22,830 nt of DNA from a virus (lineage: Duplodnaviria > Heunggongvirae > Uroviricota > Caudoviricetes): IMG/VR virus record IMGVR_UViG_2663763054_000006; one strand, given 5' to 3'. The notes beneath the pieces were generated by a model. The model did no database searches, had not been told where the DNA came from, and worked only from the letters and a program-made list of their open reading frames with translations. The stretch's first letter is position 1. Each line of letters opens with the position of its first letter. This document shows positions 1-22,830 of this stretch, piece after piece. Position numbers and translations under genes: made by a program.

Positions 1-50
1 TTTTCTGCTCATTATTAGCTCCTTCTGATGCCATTCTATTTCAGGAAGGA

Positions 51-416: not shown

Positions 417-745
417 TGGAGACGTTTCACTGGAAAGTGCGCCCGGATATGAATGTGGTATCAGAGCCGAAAGTGGTGACAGTGAAGCTGGGCGATGGTT
501 ATGAACAGCGTCGTGCGGCGGGACTGAATAACCAGTTGTCGACTTACAGCGTGAAGATACGTGTTCGTAAAGGTGAACACCCATTTTTAAAAGCCTTTCT
601 GGAACGGCACGGTGGCGTCCGCGCATTTCAGTGGACGCCACCTTATGACTGGAAGCCGATCAGGGTGGTTTGTCGTAAATGGTCGGCAAGCGTGGGGGCG
701 TTGTGGGTAACCATAACGGCAGATTTTGAACAGGTCGTGGCATAG
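416..745 (+). CDS. M: Minor tail protein M (109 aa)
   Basis: 109-aa ORF (MxTFxWKV... GDGYxQR... WTPPY... FEQVV) in the lambda M position and of lambda M length; AGGAGG lies 4 nt upstream of the next gene. Confidence 0.85.
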   Translation: METFHWKVRPDMNVVSEPKVVTVKLGDGYEQRRAAGLNNQLSTYSVKIRVRKGEHPFLKAFLERHGGVRAFQWTPPYDWKPIRVVCRKWSASVGALWVTITADFEQVVA

Positions 746-754
746 GAGGCTCTG

Positions 755-1453: not shown

Positions 1454-1457
1454 ATCC

Positions 1458-2740: not shown

Positions 2741-2757
2741 TGCAAAATGTTTTATGT

Positions 2758-2779
2758 GAAACCGCCTGCGGGCGGTTTT
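2758..2779 (+). terminator. Conserved I-J intergenic hairpin (AAACCGCC-TGCG-GGCGGTTT) followed by a T-rich tract
   Basis: 8-bp stem with a UNCG-type loop, directly followed by TTTTGTCGTTT. Recurs at 6431-6451, 8966-8987 (with wobble-compatible change) and 10415-10435. Confidence 0.35.
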
Positions 2780-2800
2780 GTCGTTTATGGAGCGTGAGGA

Positions 2801-3622
2801 ATGGGTAAAGGCAGCAGTAAGGGGCATACCCCGCGCGAAGCGAAGGACAACCTGAAATCCACGCAGTTGCTGAGTGTGATTGATGCCATCAGCGAAGGGC
2901 CGGTTGACGGTCCGGTGGATGGATTAAAAAGCGTGCTGCTGAACGGTACGCCGGTCCTGGACAGCGAGGGGAAGACAAACTTTTCCGGTGTTACGGTGGT
3001 GTTCCGTGCAGGTGAGCAGGAGCAGACACCGCCGGAGGGTTTTGAATCCTCCGGCTCCGAGACGGTGCTGGGTACGGAAGTGAAATATGACACGCCGATC
3101 ACCCGGACCATCACGTCGGCAAACATCGACCGTCTGCGCCTGACCTTCGGTGTGCAGGCACTGGTGGAAACCACCTCAAAGGGTGACCGGAATCCGTCGG
3201 AAGTCCGCCTGCTGGTTCAGATACAGCGTAACGGTGGCTGGGTGACGGAAAAAGACATCACCATTAAGGGCAAAACCACTTCGCAGTATCTGGCCTCGGT
3301 GGTGGTGGGTAACCTGCCGCCGCGCCCGTTTAATATCCGGATGCGCAGGATGACACCGGACAGCACCACAGACCAGCTGCAGAACAAAACGCTCTGGTCG
3401 TCGTACACCGAAATCATCGATGTGAAACAGTGCTACCCGAACACGGCGCTGGTCGGCGTGCAGGTGGATTCAGAGCAGTTCGGTAACCAGCAGGTGAGTC
3501 GCAATTATCATCTTCGCGGGCGCATTCTGCAGGTGCCGTCGAACTATAACCCGCAGACGCGGCAATACAGCGGTATCTGGGACGGAACGCTTAAGCCAGC
3601 ATACAGCAACAACATGGCCTGG
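2801..3622 (+). CDS. J: Host-specificity / central tail fibre protein J, N-terminal fragment (aa 1-274), cut off at the N-marked junction
   Basis: MGKGSSKGHTPREAKDNLKSTQLLSVIDAISEGPVDG... continues colinearly in the other copies ([12 protein letters not shown]...), but here is followed by N at 3623 and unrelated sequence. Confidence 0.8.
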
Positions 3623-3672
3623 NGAACCGTTCTGACAGCTTCGGCTTTGAACTCTTTAGAGTAACGTTGGGT
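3623..3672. other. Breakpoint: N at 3623 plus about 49 nt of unassigned sequence linking truncated J to a second copy of the module
   Basis: Sequence after the N does not continue J; from 3673 it is identical to window positions 1 onward. Confidence 0.7.
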
Positions 3673-3722
3673 TTTTCTGCTCATTATTAGCTCCTTCTGA
3701 TGCCATTCTATTTCAGGAAGGA

Positions 3723-4088
3723 GTGTCCGTTAAACTCAGGCTACCTCAGTCTGCTGATTTGAGTCGCTACAGTGGCACGGTGGTTAACCGTCCGACGTTT
3801 TTTGCTTTTGCAAAAGGCGCGGGTGTGATGGGGGAAGCGGGACCTGAAGCCATTCTGCCACTGCGTCGCGGTGCTGATGGTAAGCTGGGGGGTGTGGCGG
3901 ATACTGGTGGTTCAGGCATGGTGATGTTTGCCCCGCAGTACAACATTGAGATCAATAACGATGGCACGAACGGGCAGATAGGTCCGGCTGCCCTGAAGGT
4001 GGTTTATGACCTCGGGAAAAAAGCGGCCGCGGACTTTATGCAACAGCAGGCCCGTGATGGTGGCCGGTTAAGTGGAGCATACCGGTAA
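3723..4088 (+). CDS. H: gpH-like C-terminal fragment, copy 2
   Basis: Identical to 51-416; in-frame TAG at 3657-3659 upstream. Confidence 0.5.
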   Translation: MSVKLRLPQSADLSRYSGTVVNRPTFFAFAKGAGVMGEAGPEAILPLRRGADGKLGGVADTGGSGMVMFAPQYNIEINNDGTNGQIGPAALKVVYDLGKKAAADFMQQQARDGGRLSGAYR

Positions 4089-4417
4089 TGGAGACGTTTC
4101 ACTGGAAAGTGCGCCCGGATATGAATGTGGTATCAGAGCCGAAAGTGGTGACAGTGAAGCTGGGCGATGGTTATGAACAGCGTCGTGCGGCGGGACTGAA
4201 TAACCAGTTGTCGACTTACAGCGTGAAGATACGTGTTCGTAAAGGTGAACACCCATTTTTAAAAGCCTTTCTGGAACGGCACGGTGGCGTCCGCGCATTT
4301 CAGTGGACGCCACCTTATGACTGGAAGCCGATCAGGGTGGTTTGTCGTAAATGGTCGGCAAGCGTGGGGGCGTTGTGGGTAACCATAACGGCAGATTTTG
4401 AACAGGTCGTGGCATAG
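4088..4417 (+). CDS. M: Minor tail protein M, copy 2
   Basis: Identical protein to 416-745. Confidence 0.85.
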   Translation: METFHWKVRPDMNVVSEPKVVTVKLGDGYEQRRAAGLNNQLSTYSVKIRVRKGEHPFLKAFLERHGGVRAFQWTPPYDWKPIRVVCRKWSASVGALWVTITADFEQVVA

Positions 4418-4426
4418 GAGGCTCTG

Positions 4427-5125
4427 ATGCAGGATATTCCACAGGAAACACATCATGAGACGACACGCCTCACTCAGTCAGCCCAGGTGGTGCTCTGGGA
4501 AATCGATCTGACAGAGGTCGGTGGTGAACGTTATTTTTTCTGTAATGAGCAGAACGAAAAAGGTGAGCCGGTTACCTGGCAGGGGCGGCAGTATCAGGCA
4601 TACCCCATTCAGGGGACGGGATTTGAACTGAACGGCAAGGGCAGTGCTGCCCGTCCGACACTGACGGTTTCTAACCTGCACGGAATGGTCACCGGGATGG
4701 CGGAAGACCTGCAGAGTCTGGTCGGCGGAACGGTGGTCAGGCGTAAGGTTTACGCCCGTTTTCTGGATGCGGTGAACTTCGTCAACGGAAACAGCGACGC
4801 CGATCCGGAACAGGAGGTGATCAGCCGCTGGCGCATCGAGCAGTGCAGCGAACTGAGCGCGGTCAGTGCCTCTTTTGTGCTGGCCACACCAACGGAGACG
4901 GATGGCGCGGTTTTCCCGGGGCGTATCATGCTGGCGAATACCTGTATGTGGACTTACCGTTCTGATGAGTGTGGTTACACGGGCAGGGCAGTGGCTGACG
5001 AGTTCGACAAACCAACGACGGATATCCGGAAGGACAAATGCAGCAAGTGTATGCGCGGGTGTGAGTTGCGCAACAATACCGGTAATTTCGGCGGTTTCCT
5101 TTCCATCAATAAACTTTCTCAGTAA
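4427..5125 (+). CDS. L: Minor tail protein L, copy 2
   Basis: Identical protein to 755-1453. Confidence 0.85.
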   Translation: MQDIPQETHHETTRLTQSAQVVLWEIDLTEVGGERYFFCNEQNEKGEPVTWQGRQYQAYPIQGTGFELNGKGSAARPTLTVSNLHGMVTGMAEDLQSLVGGTVVRRKVYARFLDAVNFVNGNSDADPEQEVISRWRIEQCSELSAVSASFVLATPTETDGAVFPGRIMLANTCMWTYRSDECGYTGRAVADEFDKPTTDIRKDKCSKCMRGCELRNNTGNFGGFLSINKLSQ

Positions 5126-5129
5126 ATCC

Positions 5130-5873
5130 ATGACACAGACAGAATCAGCGATTCTGGCGCACGCCCGGCGATGTGCGCCAGCGGAGTCGTGTGGCTTCGT
5201 GGTAAGAACGCCGGAGGGAGACAGGTATCTTCCCAGCGAGAATATCTCCGGTGAGCCGGAGGAACGGTTCCGGATGGCTCCGGAGGACTGGCTGCGGGCA
5301 CAAATGCAGGGTGAGATTGTGGCGCTGGTCCACAGTCATCCCGGTGGTCTGCCCTGGCTGAGTGAGGCTGACCGGCGGCTGCAGGTGCAGAGTGATTTGC
5401 CGTGGTGGCTGGTCTGCCGGGGGGCGATTCACAAGTTCCGCTGTGTGCCGCATCTCACCGGGCGGCGCTTTGAGCACGGGGTGACGGACTGTTACACGCT
5501 GTTCCGGGATGCTTACCATCTGGCGGGGATTGAGATGCCGGATTTTCATCGTGAGGATGACTGGTGGCGTCACGGTCAGAATCTCTATCTGGATAATCTG
5601 GAGGCCACAGGGCTGTATCAGGTGCCGTTGTCAGCGGCGCAGCCGGGCGATGTGCTGCTGTGCTGTTTTGGTTCATCGGTGCCGAATCATGCCGCCATTT
5701 ACTGCGGTGACGGCGGGCTGCTGCACCATATTCCTGAACAACTGAGCAAACGAGAGAGGTACACCGACAAATGGCAGCGACGCACACACTCCCTCTGGCG
5801 TCACCGGGCATGGCGCGCATCTGCCTTTACGGGGATTTACAACGATTTGGTCGCCGCATCGACCTTCGTGTGA
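5130..5873 (+). CDS. K: Tail assembly protein K, copy 2 (distinct allele)
   Basis: Same JAMM and NlpC/P60 motifs; clustered amino-acid differences from copy 1 in two patches. Internal ATG at 5274 is preceded by GGAGG. Confidence 0.8.
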   Translation: MTQTESAILAHARRCAPAESCGFVVRTPEGDRYLPSENISGEPEERFRMAPEDWLRAQMQGEIVALVHSHPGGLPWLSEADRRLQVQSDLPWWLVCRGAIHKFRCVPHLTGRRFEHGVTDCYTLFRDAYHLAGIEMPDFHREDDWWRHGQNLYLDNLEATGLYQVPLSAAQPGDVLLCCFGSSVPNHAAIYCGDGGLLHHIPEQLSKRERYTDKWQRRTHSLWRHRAWRASAFTGIYNDLVAASTFV

Positions 5874-6412
5874 AAACGGGGGCTGAAGCCATCCGGGCAC
5901 TGGCCACACAGCTCCCGGCGTTTCGTCAGAAACTGAGTGACGGCTGGTATCAGGTGCGCATTGCCGGGCGTGATGCAGGTGAAACCGAATTGTCTGCCCG
6001 TCTTAATGAGCCGCTGGCAAATGGTGCAGTGATCCACATAGTACCGCGTCTGGTGGGAGCTAAAAGTGGCGGTGTGTTTCAGGCGGTGCTGGGGGCGGCT
6101 GTTATGGCGGTTGCTATATGGATGCCGGGGGTAGGAATTATGGCGAGTAATCTGCTGTTTTCTCTCGGTGCCAGTATGACGCTTGGCGGTGTTGCACAGA
6201 TGCTGGCACCGAAAGCCAGAACTCCCCGCACACAGACAACGGATAACGGTAAGCAGAACACCTATTTCTCCTCACTGGATAACATGGTTGCCCAGGGCAA
6301 TGTTCTGCCCGTTCTGTACGGTGAAATGCGCGTGGGGTCACGTGTGGTTTCTCAGGAGATCAGCACGGCAGACGAAGGGGACGGTGGTCAGGTTGTGGTG
6401 ATTGGTCGCTGA
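5771..6412 (+). CDS. I: Tail assembly protein I, copy 2 (213 aa)
   Basis: Identical protein to 2099-2740. Confidence 0.85.
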   Translation: MAATHTLPLASPGMARICLYGDLQRFGRRIDLRVKTGAEAIRALATQLPAFRQKLSDGWYQVRIAGRDAGETELSARLNEPLANGAVIHIVPRLVGAKSGGVFQAVLGAAVMAVAIWMPGVGIMASNLLFSLGASMTLGGVAQMLAPKARTPRTQTTDNGKQNTYFSSLDNMVAQGNVLPVLYGEMRVGSRVVSQEISTADEGDGGQVVVIGR

Positions 6413-6472
6413 TGCAAAATGTTTTATGTGAAACCGCCTGCGGGCGGTTTTGTCGTTTATGGAGCGTGAGGA

Positions 6473-7918
6473 ATGGGTAAAGGCAGCAGTAAGGGGCATA
6501 CCCCGCGCGAAGCGAAGGACAACCTGAAATCCACGCAGTTGCTGAGTGTGATTGATGCCATCAGCGAAGGGCCGGTTGACGGTCCGGTGGATGGATTAAA
6601 AAGCGTGCTGCTGAACGGTACGCCGGTCCTGGACAGCGAGGGGAAGACAAACTTTTCCGGTGTTACGGTGGTGTTCCGTGCAGGTGAGCAGGAGCAGACA
6701 CCGCCGGAGGGTTTTGAATCCTCCGGCTCCGAGACGGTGCTGGGTACGGAAGTGAAATATGACACGCCGATCACCCGGACCATCACGTCGGCAAACATCG
6801 ACCGTCTGCGCCTGACCTTCGGTGTGCAGGCACTGGTGGAAACCACCTCAAAGGGTGACCGGAATCCGTCGGAAGTCCGCCTGCTGGTTCAGATACAGCG
6901 TAACGGTGGCTGGGTGACGGAAAAAGACATCACCATTAAGGGCAAAACCACTTCGCAGTATCTGGCCTCGGTGGTGGTGGGTAACCTGCCGCCGCGCCCG
7001 TTTAATATCCGGATGCGCAGGATGACACCGGACAGCACCACAGACCAGCTGCAGAACAAAACGCTCTGGTCGTCGTACACCGAAATCATCGATGTGAAAC
7101 AGTGCTACCCGAACACGGCGCTGGTCGGCGTGCAGGTGGATTCAGAGCAGTTCGGTAACCAGCAGGTGAGTCGCAATTATCATCTTCGCGGGCGCATTCT
7201 GCAGGTGCCGTCGAACTATAACCCGCAGACGCGGCAATACAGCGGTATCTGGGACGGAACGCTTAAGCCAGCATACAGCAACAACATGGCCTGGTGTCTG
7301 TGGGACATGCTCACTCATCCGCGCTACGGCATGGGGAAACGTCTTGGTGCGGCAGATGTGGACAAATGGGCGCTGTATGTCATCGGCCAGTACTGCGACC
7401 AGTCAGTGACGGACGGATTTGGCGGCACGGAGCCGCGCATCACCTGTAACTCTTACCTGACCACACAGCGTAAGGCGTGGGATGTTCTCAGTGATTTCTG
7501 CTCGGCGATGCGCTGTATGCCGGTATGGAACGGACAGATGCTGACGTTCGTGCAGGACCGACCGTCGGATAAGGTGTGGACCTATAACCGCAGTAATGTG
7601 GTGATGCCGGACGATGGCGCGCCGTTCCGCTACAGCTTCAGCGCCCTGAAGGACCGCCATAATGCCGTTGAGGTGAACTGGATTGACCCAGATAACGGCT
7701 GGGAGACGGCGACAGAGCTTGTGGAGGATACGCAGGCCATTGCCCGTTACGGTCGTAATGTCACGAAGATGGATGCCTTTGGCTGTACCAGCCGGGGGCA
7801 GGCACACCGAGCCGGGCTGTGGCTGATTAAAACGGAACTGCTGGAAACGCAGACCGTGGACTTCAGCGTGGGCGCAGAAGGGCTTCGCCATGTACCGGGT
7901 GATGTCATTGAAATCTGC
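6473..7918 (+). CDS. J: J fragment (aa 1-482), ends at the N-marked junction at 7921
   Basis: Colinear J N-terminal region through ...[21 protein letters not shown], then N and mid-K sequence. Confidence 0.8.
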
Positions 7919-7922
7919 GANC

Positions 7923-8378
7923 CGGGGGGCGATTCACAAGTTCCGCTGTGTGCCACATCTTACCGGGCGGCGCTTTGAGCACGGGGTGACGGACTGTTAC
8001 ACGCTGTTCCGGGATGCTTACCATCTGGCGGGGATTGAGATGCCGGATTTTCATCGTGAGGATGACTGGTGGCGTCACGGTCAGAATCTCTATCTGGATA
8101 ATCTGGAGGCCACAGGGCTGTATCAGGTGCCGTTGTCAGCGGCGCAGCCGGGCGATGTGCTGCTGTGCTGTTTTGGTTCATCGGTGCCGAATCATGCCGC
8201 CATTTACTGTGGTGACGGCGAGCTGCTGCACCATATTCCTGAACAACTGAGCAAACGAGAGAGGTATACCGACAAATGGCAGCGACGCACACACTCCCTC
8301 TGGCGTCACCGGGCATGGCACGCATCTGCCTTTACGGGGATTTGCAACGATTTGGCCGCCGCATCGACCTTCGTGTGA
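7923..8378 (+). CDS. K: K C-terminal fragment (NlpC/P60 part, from about aa 97), joined to J at the N
   Basis: RGAIHKFRCVPHLTGRRFEHGVTDCYTLF... matches K internal sequence. No start codon context; begins at the breakpoint. Confidence 0.75.
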   Translation, partial: RGAIHKFRCVPHLTGRRFEHGVTDCYTLFRDAYHLAGIEMPDFHREDDWWRHGQNLYLDNLEATGLYQVPLSAAQPGDVLLCCFGSSVPNHAAIYCGDGELLHHIPEQLSKRERYTDKWQRRTHSLWRHRAWHASAFTGICNDLAAASTFV

Positions 8379-8947
8379 AAACGGGTGCCGAAGCCATCCG
8401 GGCGATGGCCACACAGCTCCCTGCGTTTCGTCAGAAGCTGAGCGACGGCTGGTATCAGGTGCGTATTGCCGGGCAGGATGTTAGCACGTCCGGATTAACG
8501 GCACAGTTACATGAGGCTCTGCCTGACGGCGCTGTGATTCATATTGTTCCCAGAGTCGCCGGGGCCAAGTCAGGTGGTGTATTCCAGATTGTCCTGGGAG
8601 CAGCCGCCATTGCCGGATCATTCTTTACCGCCGGAGCCACCCTTGCAGCATGGGGGGCTGCCATTGGTGCCGGTGGTATGACCGGCATTCTGTTTTCTCT
8701 CGGTGCCAGTATGGTGCTCGGCGGTGTGGCTCAGATGCTGGCACCGAAAGCCAGAACTCCCCGCACACAGACAACGGATAACGGTAAGCAGAACACCTAT
8801 TTCTCCTCACTGGATAACATGGTTGCCCAGGGCAATGTTATGCCTGTTCTGTATGGTGAAATGCGCGTGGGGTCACGTGTGGTATCTCAGGAGATCAGCA
8901 CGGCAGACGAAGGGGACGGTGGTCAGGTTGTGGTGATTGGTCGCTGA
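8276..8947 (+). CDS. I: Tail assembly protein I, 223-aa variant with longer Gly/Ala-rich hydrophobic segment
   Basis: Same N- and C-termini as the 213-aa form; central segment differs (AAAIAGSFFTAGATLAAWGAAIGAGGMTGILFSLGASMVLGG). Confidence 0.85.
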   Translation: MAATHTLPLASPGMARICLYGDLQRFGRRIDLRVKTGAEAIRAMATQLPAFRQKLSDGWYQVRIAGQDVSTSGLTAQLHEALPDGAVIHIVPRVAGAKSGGVFQIVLGAAAIAGSFFTAGATLAAWGAAIGAGGMTGILFSLGASMVLGGVAQMLAPKARTPRTQTTDNGKQNTYFSSLDNMVAQGNVMPVLYGEMRVGSRVVSQEISTADEGDGGQVVVIGR

Positions 8948-9007
8948 TGCAAAATGTTTTATGTGAAATCGCCTCCGGGCGGTTTTATCGTTTATGGAGC
9001 ATGACGA

Positions 9008-10396
9008 ATGGGTAAAGGCAGCAGTAAGGGGCATACCCCGCGCGAAGCGAAGGACAACCTGAAGTCCACGCAGCTGCTGAGTGTGATCGATGCCATCAGC
9101 GAAGGGCCGGTTGAAGGTCCGGTGGATGGATTAAAAAGCGTGCTGCTGAACAGTACGCCGGTGCTGGACAGTGAGGGGAATACCAACATCTCCGGCGTCA
9201 CGGTGGTGTTCCGGGCAGGTGAGCAGGAGCAGTCACCGCCGGAGGGATTTGAATCCTCCGGCTCCGAGACGGTGCTGGGTACGGAAGTGAAATATGACAC
9301 GCCGATCACCCGGACCATCACGTCGGCAAACATTGACCGACTGCGTTTTACCTTCGGTGTACAGGCACTGGTGGAAACCACCTCAAAGGGAGACAGGAAT
9401 CCGTCTGAAGTTCGCCTGCTGGTTCAGATACAGCGTAACGGTGGCTGGGTGACGGAAAAAGACATCACCATTAAGGGCAAAACCACCTCGCAGTATCTGG
9501 CCTCGGTGGTGGTGGATAACCTGCCGCCGCGCCCGTTTAATATCCGGATGCGCAGAATGACGCCGGACAGCACCACAGACCAGCTGCAGAACAAAACGCT
9601 CTGGTCGTCATACACCGAAATCATCGATGTGAAACAGTGCTACCCGAACACGGCACTGGTCGGCGTACAGGTGGATTCGGAGCAGTTCGGCAGCCAGCAG
9701 GTGAGCCGTAATTATCATCTTCGCGGGCGCATTCTGCAGGTGCCGTCGAACTATAATCCGCAGACGCGGCAATACAGCGGTATCTGGGACGGAACGTTAA
9801 AACCGGCATACAGCAACAACATGGCCTGGTGTCTGTGGGATATGCTGACCCATCCGCGCTATGGCATGGGGAAACGTCTTGGTGCGGCAGATGTGGATAA
9901 ATGGGCGCTGTATGTCATCGGCCAGTACTGTGACCAGTCGGTGCCGGACGGCTTTGGCAGCACGGAGCCGCGCATCACCTGTAATGCCTGGCTGACCACA
10001 CAGCGCAAGGCGTGGGATGTGCTCAGTGATTTCTGCTCGGCGATGCGCTGTATGCCGGTATGGAACGGGCAGACGCTGACGTTCGTGCAGGACCGACAGT
10101 CGGATAAGGTGTGGGCCTATAACCGCAGTAATGTGGTGATGCCGGATGATGGCGCGCCGTTCCGCTACAGTTTCAGCGCCCTGAAAGACCGCCATAATGC
10201 CGTTGAGGTGAACTGGATTGACCCGGATAACGGTAAGCAGAACACGTATTTCTCGTCACTGGATAACATGGTTGCCCAGGGCAATGTTCTGCCCGTTCTG
10301 TACGGTGAAATGCGCGTGGGGTCACGTGTGGTTTCTCAGGAGATCAGCACGGCAGACGAAGGGGATGGTGGTCAGGTTGTGGTGATTGGTCGCTGA
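9008..10396 (+). CDS. Chimeric ORF: J aa 1-409 (distinct allele) fused in frame to the last 53 aa of I
   Basis: J sequence runs to ...NWIDPDNG, then switches to I C-terminus KQNTYFSSLDNMVAQGNV...VVVIGR at the shared 10-nt cggataacgg (10224-10233). Confidence 0.75.
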   Translation: MGKGSSKGHTPREAKDNLKSTQLLSVIDAISEGPVEGPVDGLKSVLLNSTPVLDSEGNTNISGVTVVFRAGEQEQSPPEGFESSGSETVLGTEVKYDTPITRTITSANIDRLRFTFGVQALVETTSKGDRNPSEVRLLVQIQRNGGWVTEKDITIKGKTTSQYLASVVVDNLPPRPFNIRMRRMTPDSTTDQLQNKTLWSSYTEIIDVKQCYPNTALVGVQVDSEQFGSQQVSRNYHLRGRILQVPSNYNPQTRQYSGIWDGTLKPAYSNNMAWCLWDMLTHPRYGMGKRLGAADVDKWALYVIGQYCDQSVPDGFGSTEPRITCNAWLTTQRKAWDVLSDFCSAMRCMPVWNGQTLTFVQDRQSDKVWAYNRSNVVMPDDGAPFRYSFSALKDRHNAVEVNWIDPDNGKQNTYFSSLDNMVAQGNVLPVLYGEMRVGSRVVSQEISTADEGDGGQVVVIGR

Positions 10397-10456
10397 TGCA
10401 AAATGTTTTATGTGAAACCGCCTGCGGGCGGTTTTGTCGTTTATGGAGCGTGAGGA

Positions 10457-12007
10457 ATGGGTAAAGGCAGCAGTAAGGGGCATACCCCGCGCGAAGCGAA
10501 GGACAACCTGAAATCCACGCAGTTGCTGAGTGTGATTGATGCCATCAGCGAAGGGCCGGTTGACGGTCCGGTGGATGGATTAAAAAGCGTGCTGCTGAAC
10601 GGTACGCCGGTCCTGGACAGCGAGGGGAAGACAAACTTTTCCGGTGTTACGGTGGTGTTCCGTGCAGGTGAGCAGGAGCAGACACCGCCGGAGGGTTTTG
10701 AATCCTCCGGCTCCGAGACGGTGCTGGGTACGGAAGTGAAATATGACACGCCGATCACCCGGACCATCACGTCGGCAAACATCGACCGTCTGCGCCTGAC
10801 CTTCGGTGTGCAGGCACTGGTGGAAACCACCTCAAAGGGTGACCGGAATCCGTCGGAAGTCCGCCTGCTGGTTCAGATACAGCGTAACGGTGGCTGGGTG
10901 ACGGAAAAAGACATCACCATTAAGGGCAAAACCACCTCGCAGTATCTGGCCTCGGTGGTGGTGGATAACCTGCCGCCGCGCCCGTTTAATATCCGGATGC
11001 GCAGAATGACGCCGGACAGCACCACAGACCAGCTGCAGAACAAAACGCTCTGGTCGTCATACACCGAAATCATCGATGTGAAACAGTGCTACCCGAACAC
11101 GGCACTGGTCGGCGTACAGGTGGATTCGGAGCAGTTCGGCAGCCAGCAGGTGAGCCGTAATTATCATCTTCGCGGGCGCATTCTGCAGGTGCCGTCGAAC
11201 TATAATCCGCAGACGCGGCAATACAGCGGTATCTGGGACGGAACGTTAAAACCGGCATACAGCAACAACATGGCCTGGTGTCTGTGGGATATGCTGACCC
11301 ATCCGCGCTATGGCATGGGGAAACGTCTTGGTGCGGCAGATGTGGATAAATGGGCGCTGTATGTCATCGGCCAGTACTGTGACCAGTCGGTGCCGGACGG
11401 CTTTGGCAGCACGGAGCCGCGCATCACCTGTAATGCCTGGCTGACCACACAGCGCAAGGCGTGGGATGTGCTCAGTGATTTCTGCTCGGCGATGCGCTGT
11501 ATGCCGGTATGGAACGGGCAGACGCTGACGTTCGTGCAGGACCGACAGTCGGATAAGGTGTGGGCCTATAACCGCAGTAATGTGGTGATGCCGGATGATG
11601 GCGCGCCGTTCCGCTACAGTTTCAGCGCCCTGAAAGACCGCCATAATGCCGTTGAGGTGAACTGGATTGACCCGGATAACGGCTGGGAGACGGCGACAGA
11701 GCTTGTGGAGGATACGCAGGCCATTGTCCGTTACGGTCGTAACGTCACGAAGATGGATGCCTTTGGCTGTACCAGCCGGGGGCAGGCACACCGCGCCGGG
11801 CTGTGGCTGATTAAAACGGAACTGCTGGAGACGCAGACCGTGGATTTCAGCGTGGGTGCTGAAGGGCTTCGTCATGTACCGGGCGATGTCATTGAAATCT
11901 GCGATGATGACTATGCCGGTATCCGCACCGGCGGGCGCGTGCTGGCGGTGAACAGCCAGACCCGGACGCTGACGCTCGACCGTGAAATCACGCTGCCATC
12001 CTCCGGC
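10457..12007 (+). CDS. J: J fragment (aa 1-517), ends at the N-marked junction at 12008
   Basis: Colinear J to ...[10 protein letters not shown], then N and a frame-shifted restart of J at aa 115. Confidence 0.8.
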
Positions 12008-12008
12008 N

Positions 12009-15000
12009 ACCTTCGGTGTGCAGGCACTGGTGGAAACCACCTCAAAGGGTGACCGGAATCCGTCGGAAGTCCGCCTGCTGGTTCAGATACAGCGTAACGG
12101 TGGCTGGGTGACGGAAAAAGACATCACCATTAAGGGCAAAACCACTTCGCAGTATCTGGCCTCGGTGGTGGTGGGTAACCTGCCGCCGCGCCCGTTTAAT
12201 ATCCGGATGCGCAGGATGACACCGGACAGCACCACAGACCAGCTGCAGAACAAAACGCTCTGGTCGTCGTACACCGAAATCATCGATGTGAAACAGTGCT
12301 ACCCGAACACGGCGCTGGTCGGCGTGCAGGTGGATTCAGAGCAGTTCGGTAACCAGCAGGTGAGTCGCAATTATCATCTTCGCGGGCGCATTCTGCAGGT
12401 GCCGTCGAACTATAACCCGCAGACGCGGCAATACAGCGGTATCTGGGACGGAACGCTTAAGCCAGCATACAGCAACAACATGGCCTGGTGTCTGTGGGAC
12501 ATGCTCACTCATCCGCGCTACGGCATGGGGAAACGTCTTGGTGCGGCAGATGTGGACAAATGGGCGCTGTATGTCATCGGCCAGTACTGCGACCAGTCAG
12601 TGACGGACGGATTTGGCGGCACGGAGCCGCGCATCACCTGTAACTCTTACCTGACCACACAGCGTAAGGCGTGGGATGTTCTCAGTGATTTCTGCTCGGC
12701 GATGCGCTGTATGCCGGTATGGAACGGGCAGACGCTGACGTTCGTGCAGGACCGACAGTCGGATAAGGTGTGGGCCTATAACCGCAGTAATGTGGTGATG
12801 CCGGATGATGGCGCGCCGTTCCGCTACAGTTTCAGCGCCCTGAAAGACCGCCATAATGCCGTTGAGGTGAACTGGATTGACCCAGATAACGGCTGGGAGA
12901 CGGCGACAGAGCTTGTGGAGGATACGCAGGCCATTGTCCGTTACGGTCGTAACGTCACGAAGATGGATGCCTTTGGCTGTACCAGCCGGGGGCAGGCACA
13001 CCGCGCCGGGCTGTGGCTGATTAAAACGGAACTGCTGGAAACGCAGACCGTGGACTTCAGCGTGGGCGCAGAAGGGCTTCGCCATGTACCGGGTGATGTC
13101 ATTGAAATCTGCGATGATGATTATGCCGGTATCAGCACCGGTGGTCGCGTACTGGCGGTGAACAGCCAGACCCGGACGCTGACGCTCGACCGTGAAATCA
13201 CGCTGCCATCCTCCGGCACCACGCTGATAAGCCTGGTTGACGGGCAGGGGAATCCGGTCAGCGTGGAGGTCCAGTCCGTCACCGACGGCGTGAAGGTAAA
13301 AGTGAGCCGTGTTCCTGACGGTGTTGCTGAATACAGCGTGTGGGGGCTGAAGCTGCCGACGCTGCACCAGCGATTGTTCCGCTGCGTGAGTATCCGTGAG
13401 AACGACGACGGCACGTATGCCATCACCGCCGTGCAGCATGTGCCGGAAAAAGAAGCCATCGTGGATAACGGGGCGCACTTTGACGGCGACCAGAGCGGCA
13501 CGGTGAATGGTGTCACGCCGCCAGCGGTGCAGCACCTGACTGCCGAAGTCACCGCAGACAGCGGGGAATATCAGGTGCTGGCGCGCTGGGACACGCCGAA
13601 GGTGGTGAAGGGCGTGAGCTTCCTGCTCCGTCTGACCGTAACAGCGGATGACGGCAGTGAGCGGCTGGTCAGCACGGCCCGGACGACGGAAACCACTTAC
13701 CGCTTCACACAACTGGCGCTGGGGAACTACAGGCTGACAGTCCGGGCAGTAAATGCGTGGGGGCAGCAGGGCGATCCGGCGTCGGTATCGTTCCGGATTG
13801 CCGCACCGGCAGCGCTGTCGCGGATTGAGCTGACGCCGGGCTATTTTCAGATAACCGCCACGCCGCATCTTGCGGTTTATGATCCGACGGTACAGTTTGA
13901 GTTCTGGTTCTCGGAAAAGCGGATTGCGGATATCAGGCAGGTTGAAACCACAGCACGCTATCTTGGCACGGCGCTGTACTGGATAGCCGCCAGTATCAAT
14001 ATCAAACCGGGCCATGATTATTACTTTTATATCCGCAGTGTGAACACCGTTGGCAAATCGGCATTCGTGGAGGCTGTTGGTCAGCCGAGTGATGATGCAT
14101 CCGGTTATCTGGATTTTTTCAAAGGCGAGATAGGGAAAACCCATCTGGCTCAGGAGCTGTGGACGCAGATTGATAACGGTCAGCTTGCGCCTGACCTGGC
14201 TGAAATCAGGACGTCCATTACGGATGTCAGCAATGAAATCACGCAGACCGTGGATTTCAGCGTGGGTGCTGAAGGGCTTCGTCATGTACCGGGCGATGTC
14301 ATTGAAATCTGCGATGATGACTATGCCGGTATCCGCACCGGCGGGCGCGTGCTGGCGGTGAACAGCCAGACCCGGACGCTGACGCTCGACCGTGAAATCA
14401 CGCTGCCGTCCTCCGGTACCACGCTGATAAGCCTGGTTGACGGAAGTGGCAATCCGGTCAGCGTGGAGGTCCAGTCCGTCACCGACGGCGTGAAGGTAAA
14501 AGTGAGCCGTGTTCCTGACGGTGTTGCTGAATACAGCGTGTGGGGGCTGAAGCTGCCGACGCTGCACCAGCGATTGTTCCGCTGCGTGAGTATCCGTGAG
14601 AACGACGACGGCACGTATGCCATCACCGCCGTGCAGCATGTGCCGGAAAAAGAGGCCATCGTGGATAACGGGGCACACTTTGACGGTGACCGGCGCGGCA
14701 CGGTGAATGGTGTCACGCCGCCAGCGGTGCAGCACCTGACTGCCGAAGTCACCGCAGACAGCGGGGAATATCAGGTGCTGGCGCGATGGGACACGCCGAA
14801 GGTGGTGAAGGGTGTGAGCTTCCTGCTCCGTCTGACCGTAACAGCGGATGACGGCAGTGAGCGGCTGGTCAGCACGGCCCGGACGACGGAAACCACTTAC
14901 CGCTTCACACAACTGGCGCTGGGGAACTACAGGCTGACAGTCCGGGCAGTAAATGCGTGGGGGCAGCAGGGCGATCCGGCGTCGGTATCGTTCCGGATTG

Positions 15001-18000
15001 CCGCACCGGCAGCGCTGTCGCGGATTGAGCTGACGCCGGGCTATTTTCAGATAACCGCCACGCCGCATCTTGCGGTTTATGATCCGACGGTACAGTTTGA
15101 GTTCTGGTTCTCGGAAAAGCGGATTGCGGATATCAGGCAGGTTGAAACCACAGCACGCTATCTTGGCACGGCGCTGTACTGGATAGCCGCCAGTATCAAT
15201 ATCAAACCGGGCCATGATTATTACTTTTATATCCGCAGTGTGAACACCGTTGGCAAATCGGCATTCGTGGAGGCTGTTGGTCAGCCGAGTGATGATGCAT
15301 CCGGTTATCTGGATTTTTTCAAAGGCGAGATAGGGAAAACCCATCTGGCTCAGGAGCTGTGGACGCAGATTGATAACGGTCAGCTTGCGCCTGACCTGGC
15401 TGAAATCAGGACGTCCATTACGGATGTCAGCAATGAAATCACGCAGACCGTCAATAAGAAACTGGAAGACCAGAGTGCGGCAATTCAGCAGATACAGAAG
15501 GTTCAGGTTGATACAAATAATAACCTGAACAGCATGTGGGCTGTGAAGCTGCAGCAGATGCAGGACGGACGCCTTTATATCGCGGGTATTGGTGCCGGTA
15601 TTGAGAACACCCCTGACGGCATGCAGAGTCAGGTGCTGCTGGCGGCGGACAGGATTGCGATGGTTAATCCTGCGAATGGCAACACAAAACCGATGTTTGT
15701 TGGTCAGGGCGATCAGATATTCATGAACGACGTGTTCCTGAAACGCCTGACGGCCCCCACCATTACCAGCGGTGGAAATCCATCGGCATTTTCCCTGACT
15801 CCGGACGGAAAGCTGACCGCTAAAAATGCGGATATCAGTGGCAGTGTGAATGCGAACGCCGGGACGCTCAACAATGTCACGGTAAATGAAAACTGTACGA
15901 TTAAGGGCATGCTGGAGGCGACNTGGGAGACGGCGACAGAGCTTGTGGAGGATACGCAGGCCATTGCCCGTTACGGTCGTAATGTCACGAAGATGGATGC
16001 CTTTGGCTGTACCAGCCGGGGGCAGGCACACCGAGCCGGGCTGTGGCTGATTAAAACGGAACTGCTGGAAACGCAGACCGTGGACTTCAGCGTGGGCGCA
16101 GAAGGGCTTCGCCATGTACCGGGTGATGTCATTGAAATCTGCGATGATGATTATGCCGGTATCAGCACCGGTGGTCGCGTACTGGCGGTGAACAGCCAGA
16201 CCCGGACGCTGACGCTCGACCGTGAAATCACGCTGCCGTCCTCCGGTACCACGCTGATAAGCCTGGTTGACGGAAGTGGCAATCCGGTCAGCGTGGAGGT
16301 CCAGTCCGTCACCGACGGCGTGAAGGTGAAAGTGAGCCGGGTTCCTGACGGCGTTGCAGAATACAGCGTGTGGGGGCTGAAGCTGCCGACGCTGCGCCAG
16401 CGTCTGTTCCGCTGCGTGAGTATCCGTGAGAACGACGACGGCACGTATGCCATCACCGCCGTGCAGCATGTGCCGGAAAAAGAGGCCATCGTGGATAACG
16501 GGGCACACTTTGACGGTGACCGGCGCGGCACGGTGAATGGTGTCACGCCGCCAGCGGTGCAGCATCTGACCGCCGAAGTCACCGCAGACAGCGGGGAATA
16601 TCAGGTGCTGGCGCGATGGGACACGCCGAAGGTGGTGAAGGGTGTGAGCTTCCTGCTTCGCCTGACCGTGGCAGCGGACGACGGCAGTGAGCGGCTGGTC
16701 AGCACAGCCAGGACGACGGAAACCACATACCGCTTCAGGCAGCTGGCGCTGGGGAATTACAGTCTGACAGTCCGGGCGGTAAATGCCCGGGGGCAGCAGG
16801 GCGATCCGGCGTCGGTATCGTTCCGGATTGCCGCACCGGCAGCGCTGTCGCGGATTGAGCTGACGCCGGGCTATTTTCAGATAACCGCCACGCCGCATCT
16901 TGCGGTTTATGATCCGACGGTACAGTTTGAGTTCTGGTTCTCGGAAAAGCGGATTGCGGATATCAGGCAGGTTGAAACCACAGCACGCTATCTTGGCACG
17001 GCGCTGTACTGGATAGCCGCCAGTATCAATATCAGGCCGGGCCATGATTATTATTTTTACGTTCGCAGTGTGAACACCGTTGGCAAATCGGCATTTGTGG
17101 AGGCCATCGGTCGGGCGAGCGATGATGCAGAAGGTTATCTGAATTTTTATAAAGGGTTGATCAATAAAACGCATCTCGGCAAGGAGTTGTGGACGCAGAT
17201 TGATAACGGTCAGCTTGCGCCTGACCTGGCTGAAATCAGGACGTCCATTACGGATGTCAGCAATGAAATCACGCAGACCGTCAATAAGAAACTGGAAGAC
17301 CAGAGTGCGGCAATTCAGCAGATACAGAAGGTTCAGGTTGATACAAATAATAACCTGAACAGCATGTGGGCTGTGAAGCTGCAGCAGATGCAGGACGGAC
17401 GCCTTTATATCGCGGGTATTGGTGCCGGTATTGAGAACACCCCTGACGGCATGCAGAGTCAGGTGCTGCTGGCGGCGGACAGGATTGCGATGGTTAATCC
17501 TGCGAATGGCAACACAAAACCGATGTTTGTTGGTCAGGGCGATCAGATATTCATGAACGACGTGTTCCTGAAACGCCTGACGGCCCCCACCATTACCAGC
17601 GGTGGAAATCCATCGGCATTTTCCCTGACTCCGGACGGAAAGCTGACCGCTAAAAATGCGGATATCAGTGGCAGTGTGAATGCGAACGCCGGGACGCTCA
17701 ACAATGTCACGGTAAATGAAAACTGTACGATTAAGGGCATGCTGGAGGCGACTCAGGTCAGAGGTGACTTCGTTAAAGCTGTATCCAAATCATTTCCGAA
17801 ACAGGCTGGTACGTGGGGTAACACGGAAACACCAAACGGGACGGTTACAGTCACCATAAGCGATGATCATAACTTTGACCGCCAGATTATTATTCCGCCC
17901 ATTATTTTTAACGGTATAGCGTATGACGATCCGGGGAGCGGAAATAACCCAGGAGGCACGCGATACACGGGTTATGGTTTTGAAGTTCGCAAAAACGGCG

Positions 18001-18194
18001 TATTAATCGCATCCAGAGAAACTAAAGGTGCCATTCCCGGTAGTTACAGTGCAGTTATTGATATGCCTAGTGGTGGTGGTAGCGTCACTCTGGAGTTTAA
18101 GATTTTCCAGAAAGGCAATCAGGGGGCAGGCAATATCACCGACTGTACGGTGATTGTGACCAAAAAAGCGGCTTCCGGCATCAGTATTCGTTGA
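12009..18194 (+). CDS. J: Rearranged J: aa 115 to about 1010, then aa 463 to about 1120, then aa 410 to the C-terminus (2070-aa ORF; native J inferred at about 1165 aa)
   Basis: Blocks such as [26 protein letters not shown] and the FN3-like segment [33 protein letters not shown] occur three times in this ORF. Internal junctions at 14241-14251 (microhomology) and N at 15923. Ends ...[15 protein letters not shown]. Confidence 0.7.
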
Positions 18195-18216
18195 AATATT
18201 TATAACCCCAATAAAT

Positions 18217-18243
18217 GGCGTCAGGAATGACGCCTTTTTTATT
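18217..18243 (+). terminator. Rho-independent terminator after J (GGCGTCA-GGAA-TGACGCC plus TTTTTTATT)
   Basis: Perfect 7-bp GC-rich stem with a 4-nt loop followed by a T-run, 23 nt after the J stop. Confidence 0.7.
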
Positions 18244-18264
18244 GCAGAAAAGCGAGAGGTAATT

Positions 18265-18558
18265 ATGCGTAAAGTTTGTGCAGCCATTTTGTCCGCAGCC
18301 ATTTGCCTGGCCGTATCCGGTGCGCCTGCATGGGCGTCTGAACATCAGTCCACGCTGAGCGCGGGGTATCTTCATGCCCGGACCAACGTTCCCGGCAGTG
18401 ATGATCTGAACGGGATTAACGTGAAATACCGTTATGAGTTTACGGATACGCTGGGGCTGGTGACGTCATTCAGCTATGCAGGAGACAAGAATCGCCAGCT
18501 GACCCGTTACAGCGATACCCGCTGGCATGAAGATTCCGTGCGTAACCGCTGGTTCAGC
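18265..18558 (+). CDS. lom: Lom-family outer membrane protein (Ail/Lom/OmpX-like), N-terminal 98 aa, fused at the N to J
   Basis: Signal peptide MRKVCAAILSAAICLAVSGAPAWA followed by SE; family motifs GINVKYRYEFTD and SFSYAGD. GAGAGG SD upstream. Position directly after J, as in lambda. Confidence 0.8.
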
Positions 18559-18561
18559 GNG

Positions 18562-20571
18562 GCGGTGAACAGCCAGACCCGGACGCTGACGCTCGACCGT
18601 GAAATCACGCTGCCATCCTCCGGCACCACGCTGATAAGCCTGGTTGACGGGCAGGGGAATCCGGTCAGCGTGGAGGTCCAGTCCGTCACCGACGGCGTGA
18701 AGGTAAAAGTGAGCCGTGTTCCTGACGGTGTTGCTGAATACAGCGTGTGGGGGCTGAAGCTGCCGACGCTGCACCAGCGATTGTTCCGCTGCGTGAGTAT
18801 CCGTGAGAACGACGACGGCACGTATGCCATCACCGCCGTGCAGCATGTGCCGGAAAAAGAAGCCATCGTGGATAACGGGGCGCACTTTGACGGCGACCAG
18901 AGCGGCACGGTGAATGGTGTCACGCCGCCAGCGGTGCAGCACCTGACTGCCGAAGTCACCGCAGACAGCGGGGAATATCAGGTGCTGGCGCGCTGGGACA
19001 CGCCGAAGGTGGTGAAGGGCGTGAGCTTCCTGCTCCGTCTGACCGTAACAGCGGATGACGGCAGTGAGCGGCTGGTCAGCACGGCCCGGACGACGGAAAC
19101 CACTTACCGCTTCACACAACTGGCGCTGGGGAACTACAGGCTGACAGTCCGGGCAGTAAATGCGTGGGGGCAGCAGGGCGATCCGGCGTCGGTATCGTTC
19201 CGGATTGCCGCACCGGCAGCGCTGTCGCGGATTGAGCTGACGCCGGGCTATTTTCAGATAACCGCCACGCCGCATCTTGCGGTTTATGATCCGACGGTAC
19301 AGTTTGAGTTCTGGTTCTCGGAAAAGCGGATTGCGGATATCAGGCAGGTTGAAACCACAGCACGCTATCTTGGCACGGCGCTGTACTGGATAGCCGCCAG
19401 TATCAATATCAAACCGGGCCATGATTATTACTTTTATATCCGCAGTGTGAACACCGTTGGCAAATCGGCATTCGTGGAGGCTGTTGGTCAGCCGAGTGAT
19501 GATGCATCCGGTTATCTGGATTTTTTCAAAGGCGAGATAGGGAAAACCCATCTGGCTCAGGAGCTGTGGACGCAGATTGATAACGGTCAGCTTGCGCCGG
19601 ACCTGACTGAAATCAGGACGTCCATTACGAATGTCAGCAATGAAATCACGCAAACCGTCAATAAAAAACTGGAAAATCAGAGTGCTGCAATCCAGCAGAT
19701 ACAGAAAGTTCAGGTTGATACAAATAATAACCTGAACAGCATGTGGGCTGTGAAGCTGCAGCAGATGCAGGACGGACGCCTTTATATCGCGGGTATTGGT
19801 GCCGGTATTGAGAACACCCCTGACGGCATGCAGAGTCAGGTGCTGCTGGCGGCGGACAGGATTGCGATGGTTAATCCTGCGAATGGCAACACAAAACCGA
19901 TGTTTGTTGGTCAGGGCGATCAGATATTCATGAACGACGTGTTCCTGAAACGCCTGACGGCCCCCACCATTACCAGCGGTGGAAATCCATCGGCATTTTC
20001 CCTGACTCCGGACGGAAAGCTGACCGCTAAAAATGCGGATATCAGTGGCAGTGTGAATGCGAACGCCGGGACGCTCAACAATGTCACGGTAAATGAAAAC
20101 TGTACGATTAAGGGCATGCTGGAGGCGACTCAGGTCAGAGGTGACTTCGTTAAAGCTGTATCCAAATCATTTCCGAAACAGGCTGGTACGTGGGGTAACA
20201 CGGAAACACCAAACGGGACGGTTACAGTCACCATAAGCGATGATCATAACTTTGACCGCCAGATTATTATTCCGCCCATTATTTTTAACGGTATAGCGTA
20301 TGACGATCCGGGGAGCGGAAATAACCCAGGAGGCACGCGATACACGGGTTATGGTTTTGAAGTTCGCAAAAACGGCGTATTAATCGCATCCAGAGAAACT
20401 AAAGGTGCCATTCCCGGTAGTTACAGTGCAGTTATTGATATGCCTAGTGGTGGTGGTAGCGTCACTCTGGAGTTTAAGATTTTCCAGAAAGGCAATCAGG
20501 GGGCAGGCAATATCACCGACTGTACGGTGATTGTGACCAAAAAAGCGGCTTCCGGCATCAGTATTCGTTGA
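18562..20571 (+). CDS. J: J fragment aa 497 to end (about 669 aa), in frame with the preceding lom fragment through the N
   Basis: [30 protein letters not shown]... through ...[10 protein letters not shown] stop. Confidence 0.75.
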
Positions 20572-20935
20572 AATATTTATAACCCCAATAAATGGCGTCA
20601 GGAATGACGCCTTTTTTATTGCAGAAAAGCGAGAGGTAATTATGCGTAAAGTTTGTGCAGCCATTTTGTCCGCAGCCATTTGCCTGGCCGTATCCGGTGC
20701 GCCTGCATGGGCGTCTGAACATCAGTCCACGCTGAGCGCGGGGTATCTTCATGCCCGGACCAACGTTCCCGGCAGTGATGATCTGAACGGGATTAACGTG
20801 AAATACCGTTATGAGTTTACGGATACGCTGGGGCTGGTGACGTCATTCAGCTATGCAGGAGACAAGAATCGCCAGCTGACCCGTTACAGCGATACCCGCT
20901 GGCATGAAGATTCCGTGCGTAACCGCTGGTTCAGC
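20572..20935 (+). repeat. Direct repeat of 18195-18558 (terminator plus lom 5' part), offset 2377
   Basis: Identical intergenic region, hairpin and lom N-terminal translation. Confidence 0.85.
20594..20620 (+). terminator. Rho-independent terminator after J (second copy)
   Basis: Same hairpin and T-run as 18217-18243. Confidence 0.7.
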
Positions 20936-21079
20936 GTGATGGCGGGGCCGTCTGTGCGCGTGAATGAATGGTTCAGCGCGTATGCGATGGCGGGTGTGGC
21001 TTACAGCCGTGTGTCGACTTTTTCCGGGGATTATATCCGCGTAACTGACAATAAGGGGAAAACGCACGATGTGCTGACC
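20642..21079 (+). CDS. lom: Lom-family outer membrane protein, N-terminal 146 aa, interrupted by the N run
   Basis: Continues beyond the first lom fragment (...VMAGPSVRVNEWFSAYAMAGVAYSRVSTFSGDYIRVTDNKGKTHDVLT), showing the lom body is in the data. Confidence 0.8.
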
Positions 21080-21090
21080 NNNNNNNNNNN
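21080..21090. other. Run of 11 N: gap or join between lom (aa 146) and the J C-terminal region
   Basis: Ambiguous bases flanked by unrelated genes. Confidence 0.9.
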
Positions 21091-22567
21091 CAGCACAGCC
21101 AGGACGACGGAAACCACATACCGCTTCAGGCAGCTGGCGCTGGGGAATTACAGTCTGACAGTCCGGGCGGTAAATGCCCGGGGGCAGCAGGGCGATCCGG
21201 CGTCGGTATCGTTCCGGATTGCGGCACCGGCAGCGCCTGTCACTATTGAACTGATACCGGGGTATTTTCAGATAACGGCGGTCCCGAAACTGGCTGTATA
21301 TGACCCGACGGTGCAGTTTGAGTTCTGGTTTTCGGAAAAGCGGATTGCGGATATCAGGCAGGTTGAAACCAGCGCCCGCTATCTTGGCACGGCGCTGTAC
21401 TGGATAGCCGCCAGTATCAATATCAGGCCGGGCCATGATTATTATTTTTACGTTCGCAGTGTGAACACCGTTGGCAAATCGGCATTTGTGGAGGCCATCG
21501 GTCGGGCGAGCGATGATGCAGAAGGTTATCTGAATTTTTATAAAGGGTTGATCAATAAAACGCATCTCGGCAAGGAGTTGTGGACGCAGATTGATAACGG
21601 TCAGCTTGCGCCGGACCTGACTGAAATCAGGACGTCCATTACGAATGTCAGCAATGAAATCACGCAAACCGTCAATAAAAAACTGGAAAATCAGAGTGCT
21701 GCAATCCAGCAGATACAGAAAGTTCAGGTTGATACAAATAATAACCTGAACAGCATGTGGGCTGTGAAGCTGCAACAGATGAAGGACGGACGCCTTTATA
21801 TTGCGGGTATCGGTGCCGGTATTGAGAATACGCCAGCAGGAATGCAGAGTCAGGTGCTGCTGGCGGCAGACAGGATTGCGATGATTAATCCTGCGAATGG
21901 CAACACAAAGCCGATGTTTGTTGGTCAGGGCGATCAGATATTCATGAACGACGTGTTCCTGAAATGCCTGACGGCTCCGACCATTACCAGCGGCGGTAAT
22001 CCTCCGGCATTTTCCCTGACACCTGGCGGACGGCTGACGGCGAAAAATGCCGATATCAGCGGTAACGTGAACGCGAACTCCGGGACGCTCAACAACGTCA
22101 CGATTAATAAGAACTGTCGGGTTCTGGGAAAATTGTCCGCGAACCAGATTGAAGGCGATCTCGTTAAAACAGTGGGCAAACCTTTCCCACGGGACTCCCG
22201 GGCACCGGAGAGGTGGCCATCAGGGACCATTACCGTCAGGGTTTATGACGATCAGCCGTTTGATCGGCAAATTGTTATTCCCGCGGTGGCGTTTCGCGGT
22301 GCTAAACATGAGCGGAAGAATAACAATATTTATTCGTCATGCCGCCTGATAGTGAAGAAAAACGGTGCTGAAATTTATAACCGAACGACCCTGGATAATA
22401 CGCTGATATATACGGGTGTTATTGATATGCCTGCCGGTCACGGTCACATGACGCTGGAGTTTTCTGTATCGGCATGGCTGGTAAATGGCTGGTATCCCAC
22501 AGCAAGTATCAGCGATTTGCTGGTTGTGGTGATGAAGAAAGCCACTGCAGGCATCACGATTAGCTGA
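21091..22567 (+). CDS. J: J C-terminal fragment carrying the alternative receptor-binding module (ends ...[16 protein letters not shown])
   Basis: Upstream part is highly similar to the other J alleles; the last 150 aa or so (from about [19 protein letters not shown]) is strongly divergent from the ...ASGISIR module. Confidence 0.75.
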
Positions 22568-22586
22568 ATTTTATAACCCAGATACG

Positions 22587-22613
22587 GGCACCAGAAATGG
22601 TGCCTTTTTTATT
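22587..22613 (+). terminator. Rho-independent terminator after J, variant stem (GGCACCA-GAAA-TGGTGCC plus TTTTTTATT)
   Basis: Stem differs from 18217-18234 at paired positions, with complementarity preserved. Confidence 0.7.
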
Positions 22614-22634
22614 GCAGAAAAGCGAGAGGTAATT

Positions 22635-22830
22635 ATGCGTAAAGTTTGTGCAGCCATTTTGTCCGCAGCCATTTGCCTGGCCGTATCCGGTGCGCCTGCA
22701 TGGGCGTCTGAACATCAGTCCACGCTGAGCGCGGGGTATCTTCATGCCCGGACCAACGTTCCCGGCAGTGATGATCTGAACGGGATTAACGTGAAATACC
22801 GTTATGAGTTTACGGATACGCTGGGGCTGG
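22635..22830 (+). CDS. lom: Lom-family outer membrane protein, third copy, 5' part (runs off the window end)
   Basis: Identical N-terminal translation to the other lom copies; GAGAGG SD at 22624-22629. Confidence 0.8.
   Translation, partial: MRKVCAAILSAAICLAVSGAPAWASEHQSTLSAGYLHARTNVPGSDDLNGINVKYRYEFTDTLGL

Follow-up and report, generated by a model that had tools for sequence, protein, structure and literature searches.

The window analyzed here is a 22,830-nucleotide (nt) stretch of DNA from a virus of the class Caudoviricetes (IMG/VR record IMGVR_UViG_2663763054_000006), and the element in question is the 3′ end of a gene for J, the tail-tip protein of lambdoid phages. A preliminary description, made from the sequence alone, assigned positions 17715 to 18194 to the C-terminal receptor-binding module of J; we found the assignment, the coordinates, and the reading frame to be correct. 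The segment starts with the first base of the Asn codon in NENCTIKG and ends with a TGA stop codon (18192-18194) after ...AASGISIR; lom (PF06316, Ail_Lom; expectation value [E] 5.6e-57) begins 70 nt past this stop. Two copies of this allele, v1, and one copy of a second allele, v2, are present in the window (Table 1); the stretch in which the two v1 copies are identical begins 934 nt before the lom ATG and takes in the first 295 nt of lom. We consider it highly probable that the segment is the C-terminal immunoglobulin (Ig)-like receptor-binding domain (RBD) of J, and that it represents a discrete, swappable allele class, exchanged as a cassette by homologous recombination. It is one of several discrete classes circulating in lambdoid prophages of Escherichia, Shigella, and Salmonella.

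Table 1. Features of the window, positions of its pieces on the complete E. coli prophage used as mapping reference (locus L002, strain LD93-1), and v1-v2 protein identity by region (loops numbered on the 197-residue query used for modeling)
Feature	Position in window	Strand	Position on L002	Remarks
J RBD, class v1, copy A	17715..18194	+		159 codons plus TGA; equals lambda J residues 980-1131
J RBD, class v1, copy B	20092..20571	+		Identical to copy A, 0 mismatches over RBD and intergenic region
J RBD, class v2	22106..22567	+		153 codons plus stop; homologous position; 40% amino acid identity to v1; PF12421, 126.4 bits
Conserved fiber segment before the RBD (...GTLNNVT), left homology arm	17601..17714	+		32 of 38 residues the same in v1 and v2 (84%)
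Cassette-specific intergenic DNA with terminator-like hairpin	18195..18240	+		Hairpin 18217-18234, GGCGTCA-GGAA-TGACGCC, then T run (terminator scan)
Shared ribosome-binding-site region and 5′ part of lom, right homology arm	18241..18559	+		lom ATG at 18265; cut by N at 18560; three copies 100% identical
Scaffold fragment F5, bearing v1 copy A	15924..18559	+	7725-10360	J from about codon 410 to stop, plus lom 5′ end; Ns at 15923 and 18560
Whole window	1..22830	.		Nine overlapping fragments of one H'-M-L-K-I-J-lom tail-tip map, concatenated
Piece 1			3764-7319	
Piece 2			3764-7945	
Piece 3			5436-7718	
Piece 4			6270-8048	
Piece 5			6840-9077	
Piece 6			7878-9553	
Piece 7			7725-10360	
Piece 8			7985-10503	
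Piece 9			8501-10261	
38 residues before RBD (...GTLNNVT)				v1-v2 identity 84%
RBD framework				v1-v2 identity 54%
Loop 67-79				v1-v2 identity 8%
Loop 104-123				v1-v2 identity 10%
Loop 137-151				v1-v2 identity 20%
Loop 169-178				v1-v2 identity 10%

The v1-bearing J fragment matches the Pfam family PF12421 (Ig_GpJ_C; [quoted passage not shown]) with 89.9 bits, against a cut-off of 26.2, over profile positions 1 to 134 of 135. This match lies at the extreme C terminus of the domain series encoded by 15924-18191, which runs Phage-tail_3, Ig_J, Ig_J_second, Phage_Tail_Tip, PF12421. With phmmer, the v1 RBD aligned to residues 980-1131 of the 1,132 in lambda J and to the chain A8 gpJ 713 (PDB 9wca/9wcb). 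The last 197 residues, modeled with AlphaFold2 (monomer, 26-sequence alignment), have eleven strands and a mean predicted local distance difference test (pLDDT) score of 77.8; in most of the RBD, blocks score 73-96. When the model was compared with the PDB by Foldseek, the top four matches were all gpJ structures (E of 1e-17 to 2e-16): 8xcj (lambda gpJ-LamB), 9wca (closed A8 gpJ), 8xck (closed lambda gpJ), and 9wcb (A8 gpJ with OmpC). TM-scores normalized to the query are 0.61-0.63 for 8xcj, 9wca, and 9wcb; the next match after the gpJ chains has an E of 1e-4, thirteen orders of magnitude weaker. The v1 domain is thus predicted to adopt an Ig-like β-sandwich like that of the solved gpJ RBDs. 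Both checks proposed in the preliminary description, alignment to characterized J C termini and structure prediction of the end of the protein, bore out its identification of the module, the latter with an E of about 1e-17.

The same description held that the J alleles are highly similar up to ...GTLNNVT and then diverge sharply, and this is borne out when the 3′ ends of the three J copies are aligned as DNA with gaps: v1 and v2 are 92.5% identical (916 of 990 positions) over 16720-17709, identical in about 53% of alignment columns (52.2% by codon alignment) over 17710-18240, and identical throughout (210 of 210) over 18241-18450. The divergent block of about 530 bp consists of the RBD and the J-lom intergenic DNA, to 24 nt before the lom ATG; its left break lies at about 17710 (lambda residue ∼979) and its right break at 18240. 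The conserved segment to its left has the lowest column entropy among the 26 homologues and retains 80-100% DNA identity per 30-nt window. A frameshift as the cause of the divergence is ruled out, since a tblastn search of the v1 protein against v2 DNA yielded one in-frame high-scoring segment pair (HSP) over the whole domain (residues 1-158). Nor do the two proteins align with high identity once gaps are allowed: BLASTP gave 40% identity with 7% gaps, at an E of 4e-34. Because of this E value, and because both match PF12421, v1 and v2 are clearly homologous alleles of one fold that differ mainly in four loops; to call them "unrelated-looking," as had been done, overstates their divergence.

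Each cassette has its own hairpin stem between J and lom. The v2 hairpin (22586-22605) has a different stem, GGGCACCA/TGGTGCCT, and is followed by a T run that is only partly common to the two alleles; full identity holds from 18241 on. Because of these separate stems, the exchanged unit appears to be the RBD plus terminator, beyond the coding sequence alone. Upstream, v1 copy A and the v2-bearing fragment agree at every position of 17020-17199, a stretch in which copy B differs, and the reverse is true over 17200-17379; RBDs and backbones therefore appear reshuffled among scaffold fragments F5, F6, and F7, with the phasing within fragments dependent on the assembler. In a survey of 1,207 homologues, Maddamsetti et al. 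2018 (PMC6646904) described J residues 960-1132 as an independently recombining module, and the marks of their specificity-region cassettes (sharp loss of identity, conserved flanks, one RBD on different backbones) are present here. The cassette swap suggested in the preliminary description accords with this pattern of recombinational exchange, in which identity is 52% inside and 92-100% in the flanks and one RBD occurs on two upstream backbones.

The four loops in which v1 and v2 differ most also have the highest column entropy across the 26 homologues, and in the strand order of the model conserved turns (DDxxFDRQ, KNG, DMPxGxG) fall between them; this is the pattern expected of loops that lie together at one end of the sandwich. 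They coincide with four reported indel hotspots in J, at lambda residues 1012, 1048-49, 1077-78, and 1107 (PMC6646904). From the alignment, the indel hotspots, and the strand topology, we infer that they correspond to the four bottom loops, L1-L4, with which lambda J binds LamB and triggers opening (PMC11101478). The cysteines of v1 are also distinctive: v1 lacks the Cys of the Y-S-x-C-R-L strand found in nearly all other classes (v1 reads YTGYGF) and has a Cys in ...NITDCTVIV..., where other classes read ISDLLV, while the invariant Cys of N-E-N-C is retained. A repositioned disulfide in v1 is possible.

Comparison with solved RBDs places v1 outside both the lambda and the A8 class. The lambda gpJ RBD (residues ∼980-1132; 8xcj/8xck), which binds LamB, shares with v1 the PF12421 match, the C-terminal position, the domain series, the predicted Ig-like sandwich, and a set of framework motifs (NxNC, GD.VK, FP, DDxxFDRQ, KNG, DMPxGxG, and KKxxxGI). 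The two RBDs are, however, about 37-41% identical, and none of the four variable loops of v1 agrees with its lambda counterpart in sequence or length; v1 shows this same low identity to lambda-type records generally, with loops that do not align residue for residue, and thus falls outside the LamB-specific lambda-type class. No sign was found that v1 uses LamB. As for v2, it is ∼40% identical to lambda J and likewise falls outside the lambda class. The best-scoring solved relative of both alleles is the OmpC-binding gpJ of A8 (111 bits for v1 and 182 bits for v2 over the RBD), and v2 aligns end to end with the solved A8 chain. A8 gpJ has the fold predicted for v1 and is itself a modular unit like the one seen here, a natural cassette taken from a prophage and joined to lambda J at residue 964; Brodel et al. 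2024 showed that natural J C termini grafted at this residue retarget lambda particles from LamB to OmpC (PMC11338833). Neither allele belongs to the A8 class (the P0053/P0066 groups): v1 is ∼43-47% identical to it, too little for the OmpC-specific A8 type, and v2 ∼60%.

Phage phi330, an OmpC-dependent Shiga toxin (Stx) phage, is described as most similar to WGPS6 (PMC12502783), and Stx2a_WGPS6 (AP012539.1/NC_049945.1) carries a v1 RBD. We suspected from this relationship that phi330 might be v1-class, but this was ruled out: its reported loop residues (T918-Y921, E953-S962, and A1015-P1020; PMC12502783) fit an A8-type sequence exactly and do not fit v1. The phi330 RBD is probably A8-type, although this assignment is our own. 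Phi330 and WGPS6 would then be near-identical Stx2a phages that differ by an RBD swap.

Members of the v1 class are common. At ≥90% identity the class comprises 74 phage records. The phages named here carry the same 159-amino-acid module in the same place, with lom next and one to five amino acid differences; identity to v1 is 99.4% for Evi, 2B8, PhiR26_1, and PhiR29_1, 98.1% for cdtI, 97.5% for 2851, Stx2a_WGPS6, and mEp460_ev081, and 96.9% for Ayreon, mEp332, phi458, and many Stx2c and Stx1a phages. Among 5,426 complete E. coli genomes, v1 was found in 2,083 (∼38%), in up to 7 copies per genome and with a best DNA match of 97.9%, so that the exact source strain is not among these genomes; v2-like cassettes were found in 3,349. 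Annotated protein fragments from E. albertii and Shigella sonnei also belong to the v1 class. Clustering of homologous J tails gave several discrete classes, and phage records are either ≥90% or <60% identical to v1, with none between. Thus, v1 is an already known, named, and common allele class of a published modular host-range determinant. The preliminary scan correctly recognized such a determinant, and the result is mainly bookkeeping: the window adds one more instance of the J specificity region, seen through a fragmented assembly.

Could accelerated point mutation, driven by diversifying selection in an arms race with the host, have made the two alleles diverge in place, without cassette exchange? 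The specificity region is fast-evolving and a mutational hotspot in experiments (PMC6646904), and alleles within a class differ by a few percent. Point mutation would nevertheless have to account for two abrupt edges, at each of which identity of 92-100% gives way to 52% over ∼10-30 nt, in noncoding DNA and a hairpin stem as well as in the RBD, for the gap between classes described above, and for the presence of the same class on different backbones; phylogenies of RBD and backbone are also reported to be incongruent (PMC6646904). We regard divergence in place as very improbable. Still less credible is that the variant is an artifact of a mis-scaffolded repeat, whether through chimeric assembly, a frameshift, or an error in sequencing. 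The window does contain joins at Ns and two short-overlap joins, one of which is absent from the 5,426 complete genomes, but v1 lies well inside F5 (1,791 nt from the upstream N and 365 nt from the downstream N), v1 and v2 are related by one in-frame HSP, and both cassettes are present, whole and with the same J-lom surroundings, in complete genomes by the thousand and in dozens of finished phage genomes. These database matches rule out assembly artifact as the origin of the variant. Some points do weigh against reading the segment as an exchanged receptor-binding cassette in its full form. The linkage of RBD to backbone in each fragment rests on an assembler that made proven chimeric joins elsewhere in the scaffold; the structure is a monomer model of moderate confidence that does not fix trimer geometry or loop conformations, and its first 60 residues, a fiber part that is trimeric in reality, have pLDDT values of 57-70; and both the match of the loops to L1-L4 and the receptor-binding role of this allele are predictions from sequence and model.

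The receptor itself is a separate question. The preliminary description reasoned from the two modules to phages that target different outer-membrane receptors; this is plausible but does not follow, because several diverged RBD classes all use OmpC. The studied non-lambda J RBDs mostly do so: A8 and 1A2, which prefer different variants among 23 OmpC variants (PMC11338833); phi330 and 434, whose RBDs are just 35-40% identical (PMC12502783); and Gifsy-1 (PMC12312913). On this evidence, and given that v2 is ∼60% identical to the A8-type OmpC-binding class, v1 and v2 may bind the same receptor protein, most plausibly OmpC, each tuned to different natural variants, so that RBD diversity would track receptor-allele polymorphism. 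We think this quite possible, if somewhat short of an even chance: v1 is more distant from the A8 class, its four loops are unrelated to those of both A8 and lambda, and RBDs of the lambda and Phi21 types use LamB. Because single mutations can move these last two types to OmpC or OmpF (for the Phi21 type, point mutations shift use from LamB to OmpC to OmpF in the literature), sequence class does not predict receptor. The literature searched (PMC12502783, PMC12312913, PMC11893012, PMC13190303, PMC3442831, PMC6646904, and a 2026 receptor-prediction preprint) gave no receptor for a v1-class phage, and none for v2. Since v1-class phages propagate on E. coli K-12 (the recorded host of Ayreon, PhiR26_1, PhiR34_1, mEp332, and phi458), the v1 receptor is present on K-12; gpJ 1A2 delivers poorly to the K-12 strain MG1655 (PMC11338833), a weak hint that v1 is not 1A2. 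It is conceivable, if rather unlikely, that v1 docks on an outer-membrane protein new as a receptor for lambda-type J, neither LamB nor OmpC/OmpF; we raise this because its loops are unlike those of classes with known receptors, the second cysteine is absent, and the literature offers no assignment.

Under the preferred reading, that of an exchanged receptor-binding cassette, v1 would work as the lambda and A8 structures suggest. The J trimer would present three RBDs at its tip, and the four distal loops of each would enter a trimeric outer-membrane β-barrel from the extracellular side and set which receptor, or receptor variant, is accepted; by analogy with lambda, binding would spread the bases of the RBDs, and this movement would twist the β-prism fiber and open the tail tip for DNA ejection. 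The cassette itself would be exchanged by homologous recombination between co-resident or coinfecting lambdoid phages via its near-identical flanks, which is feasible because such DNA bounds it on both sides. The v1 class is very common and is found in Stx-converting phages; an experimental assignment of its receptor would bear on forecasts of how Stx phages spread and on which tail-tip modules to select for engineered lambda delivery particles.

The window as a whole is an assembly patchwork and not a natural contiguous genome sequence. Single Ns lie at 3623, 7921, 12008, 15923, and 18560, and a run of eleven at 21080-21090; after each, the piece restarts earlier on the same lambdoid map (end of H, M, L, K, I, J, and lom). 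Two further joins are N-free and fall on shared strings of ∼10 nt: at ∼10224-10233, J is run onto the end of I, and at ∼14241-14251, ...EITQT is run onto VDFSVG.... The latter junction is spanned by none of the 5,426 complete E. coli genomes, and its exact 46-nt pattern had no match in genome, viral, or metagenome contig collections; because of this absence, the 2,070-amino-acid open reading frame (ORF) at 11982-18194 and the 1,525-amino-acid antisense ORF at 12597-17174 are artifacts. Windows of this kind are collapsed-repeat scaffolds of polylysogenic E. coli, and long "genes" in them are artifactual. The J alleles first described in the window (v1 twice, v2 once) are scaffold fragments joined at Ns and at the two N-free overlaps rather than contiguous genes. 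Up to three distinct haplotypes occur among the fragments at any one map position, and therefore the source holds three or more related tail-tip loci, a common state in polylysogenic E. coli. The earlier claim about what the source carries or samples rests on this artifactual scaffold, which shows the haplotypes but does not link each RBD to its prophage.

M, L, K, and I are found in other scaffold fragments and in two reference loci (L001 and L002); the M-L-K-I-J-lom linkage is shown in reference genomes and is seen in the window only within fragments. Several of these genes vary among fragments. Tail assembly gene I has two forms, one of 223 amino acids (8276-8947) and one of 213 (2099-2740 and 5771-6412), the longer with a different and longer glycine/alanine-rich central segment. 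K has a divergent patch, EGERYFPCVNISGEPEAYFRMSPEDWLQAEMQ in one fragment versus EGDRYLPSENISGEPEERFRMAPEDWLRAQMQ in another. The second Ig/fibronectin type III-like domain of J has a small divergent patch (16840-16929 versus 21231-21320; 63-83% identity per 30 nt) embedded in 97-100% identical DNA, another mosaic segment.

In other genomes, several entries such as those of proteins P0005, P0006, P0043, and P0048 have the J C-terminal domain joined directly to a domain of minor tail protein L or of Lom, and many database J entries are partial at contig ends; such fusions and partial entries fit deletion remnants and short-read assembly breakage inside J.

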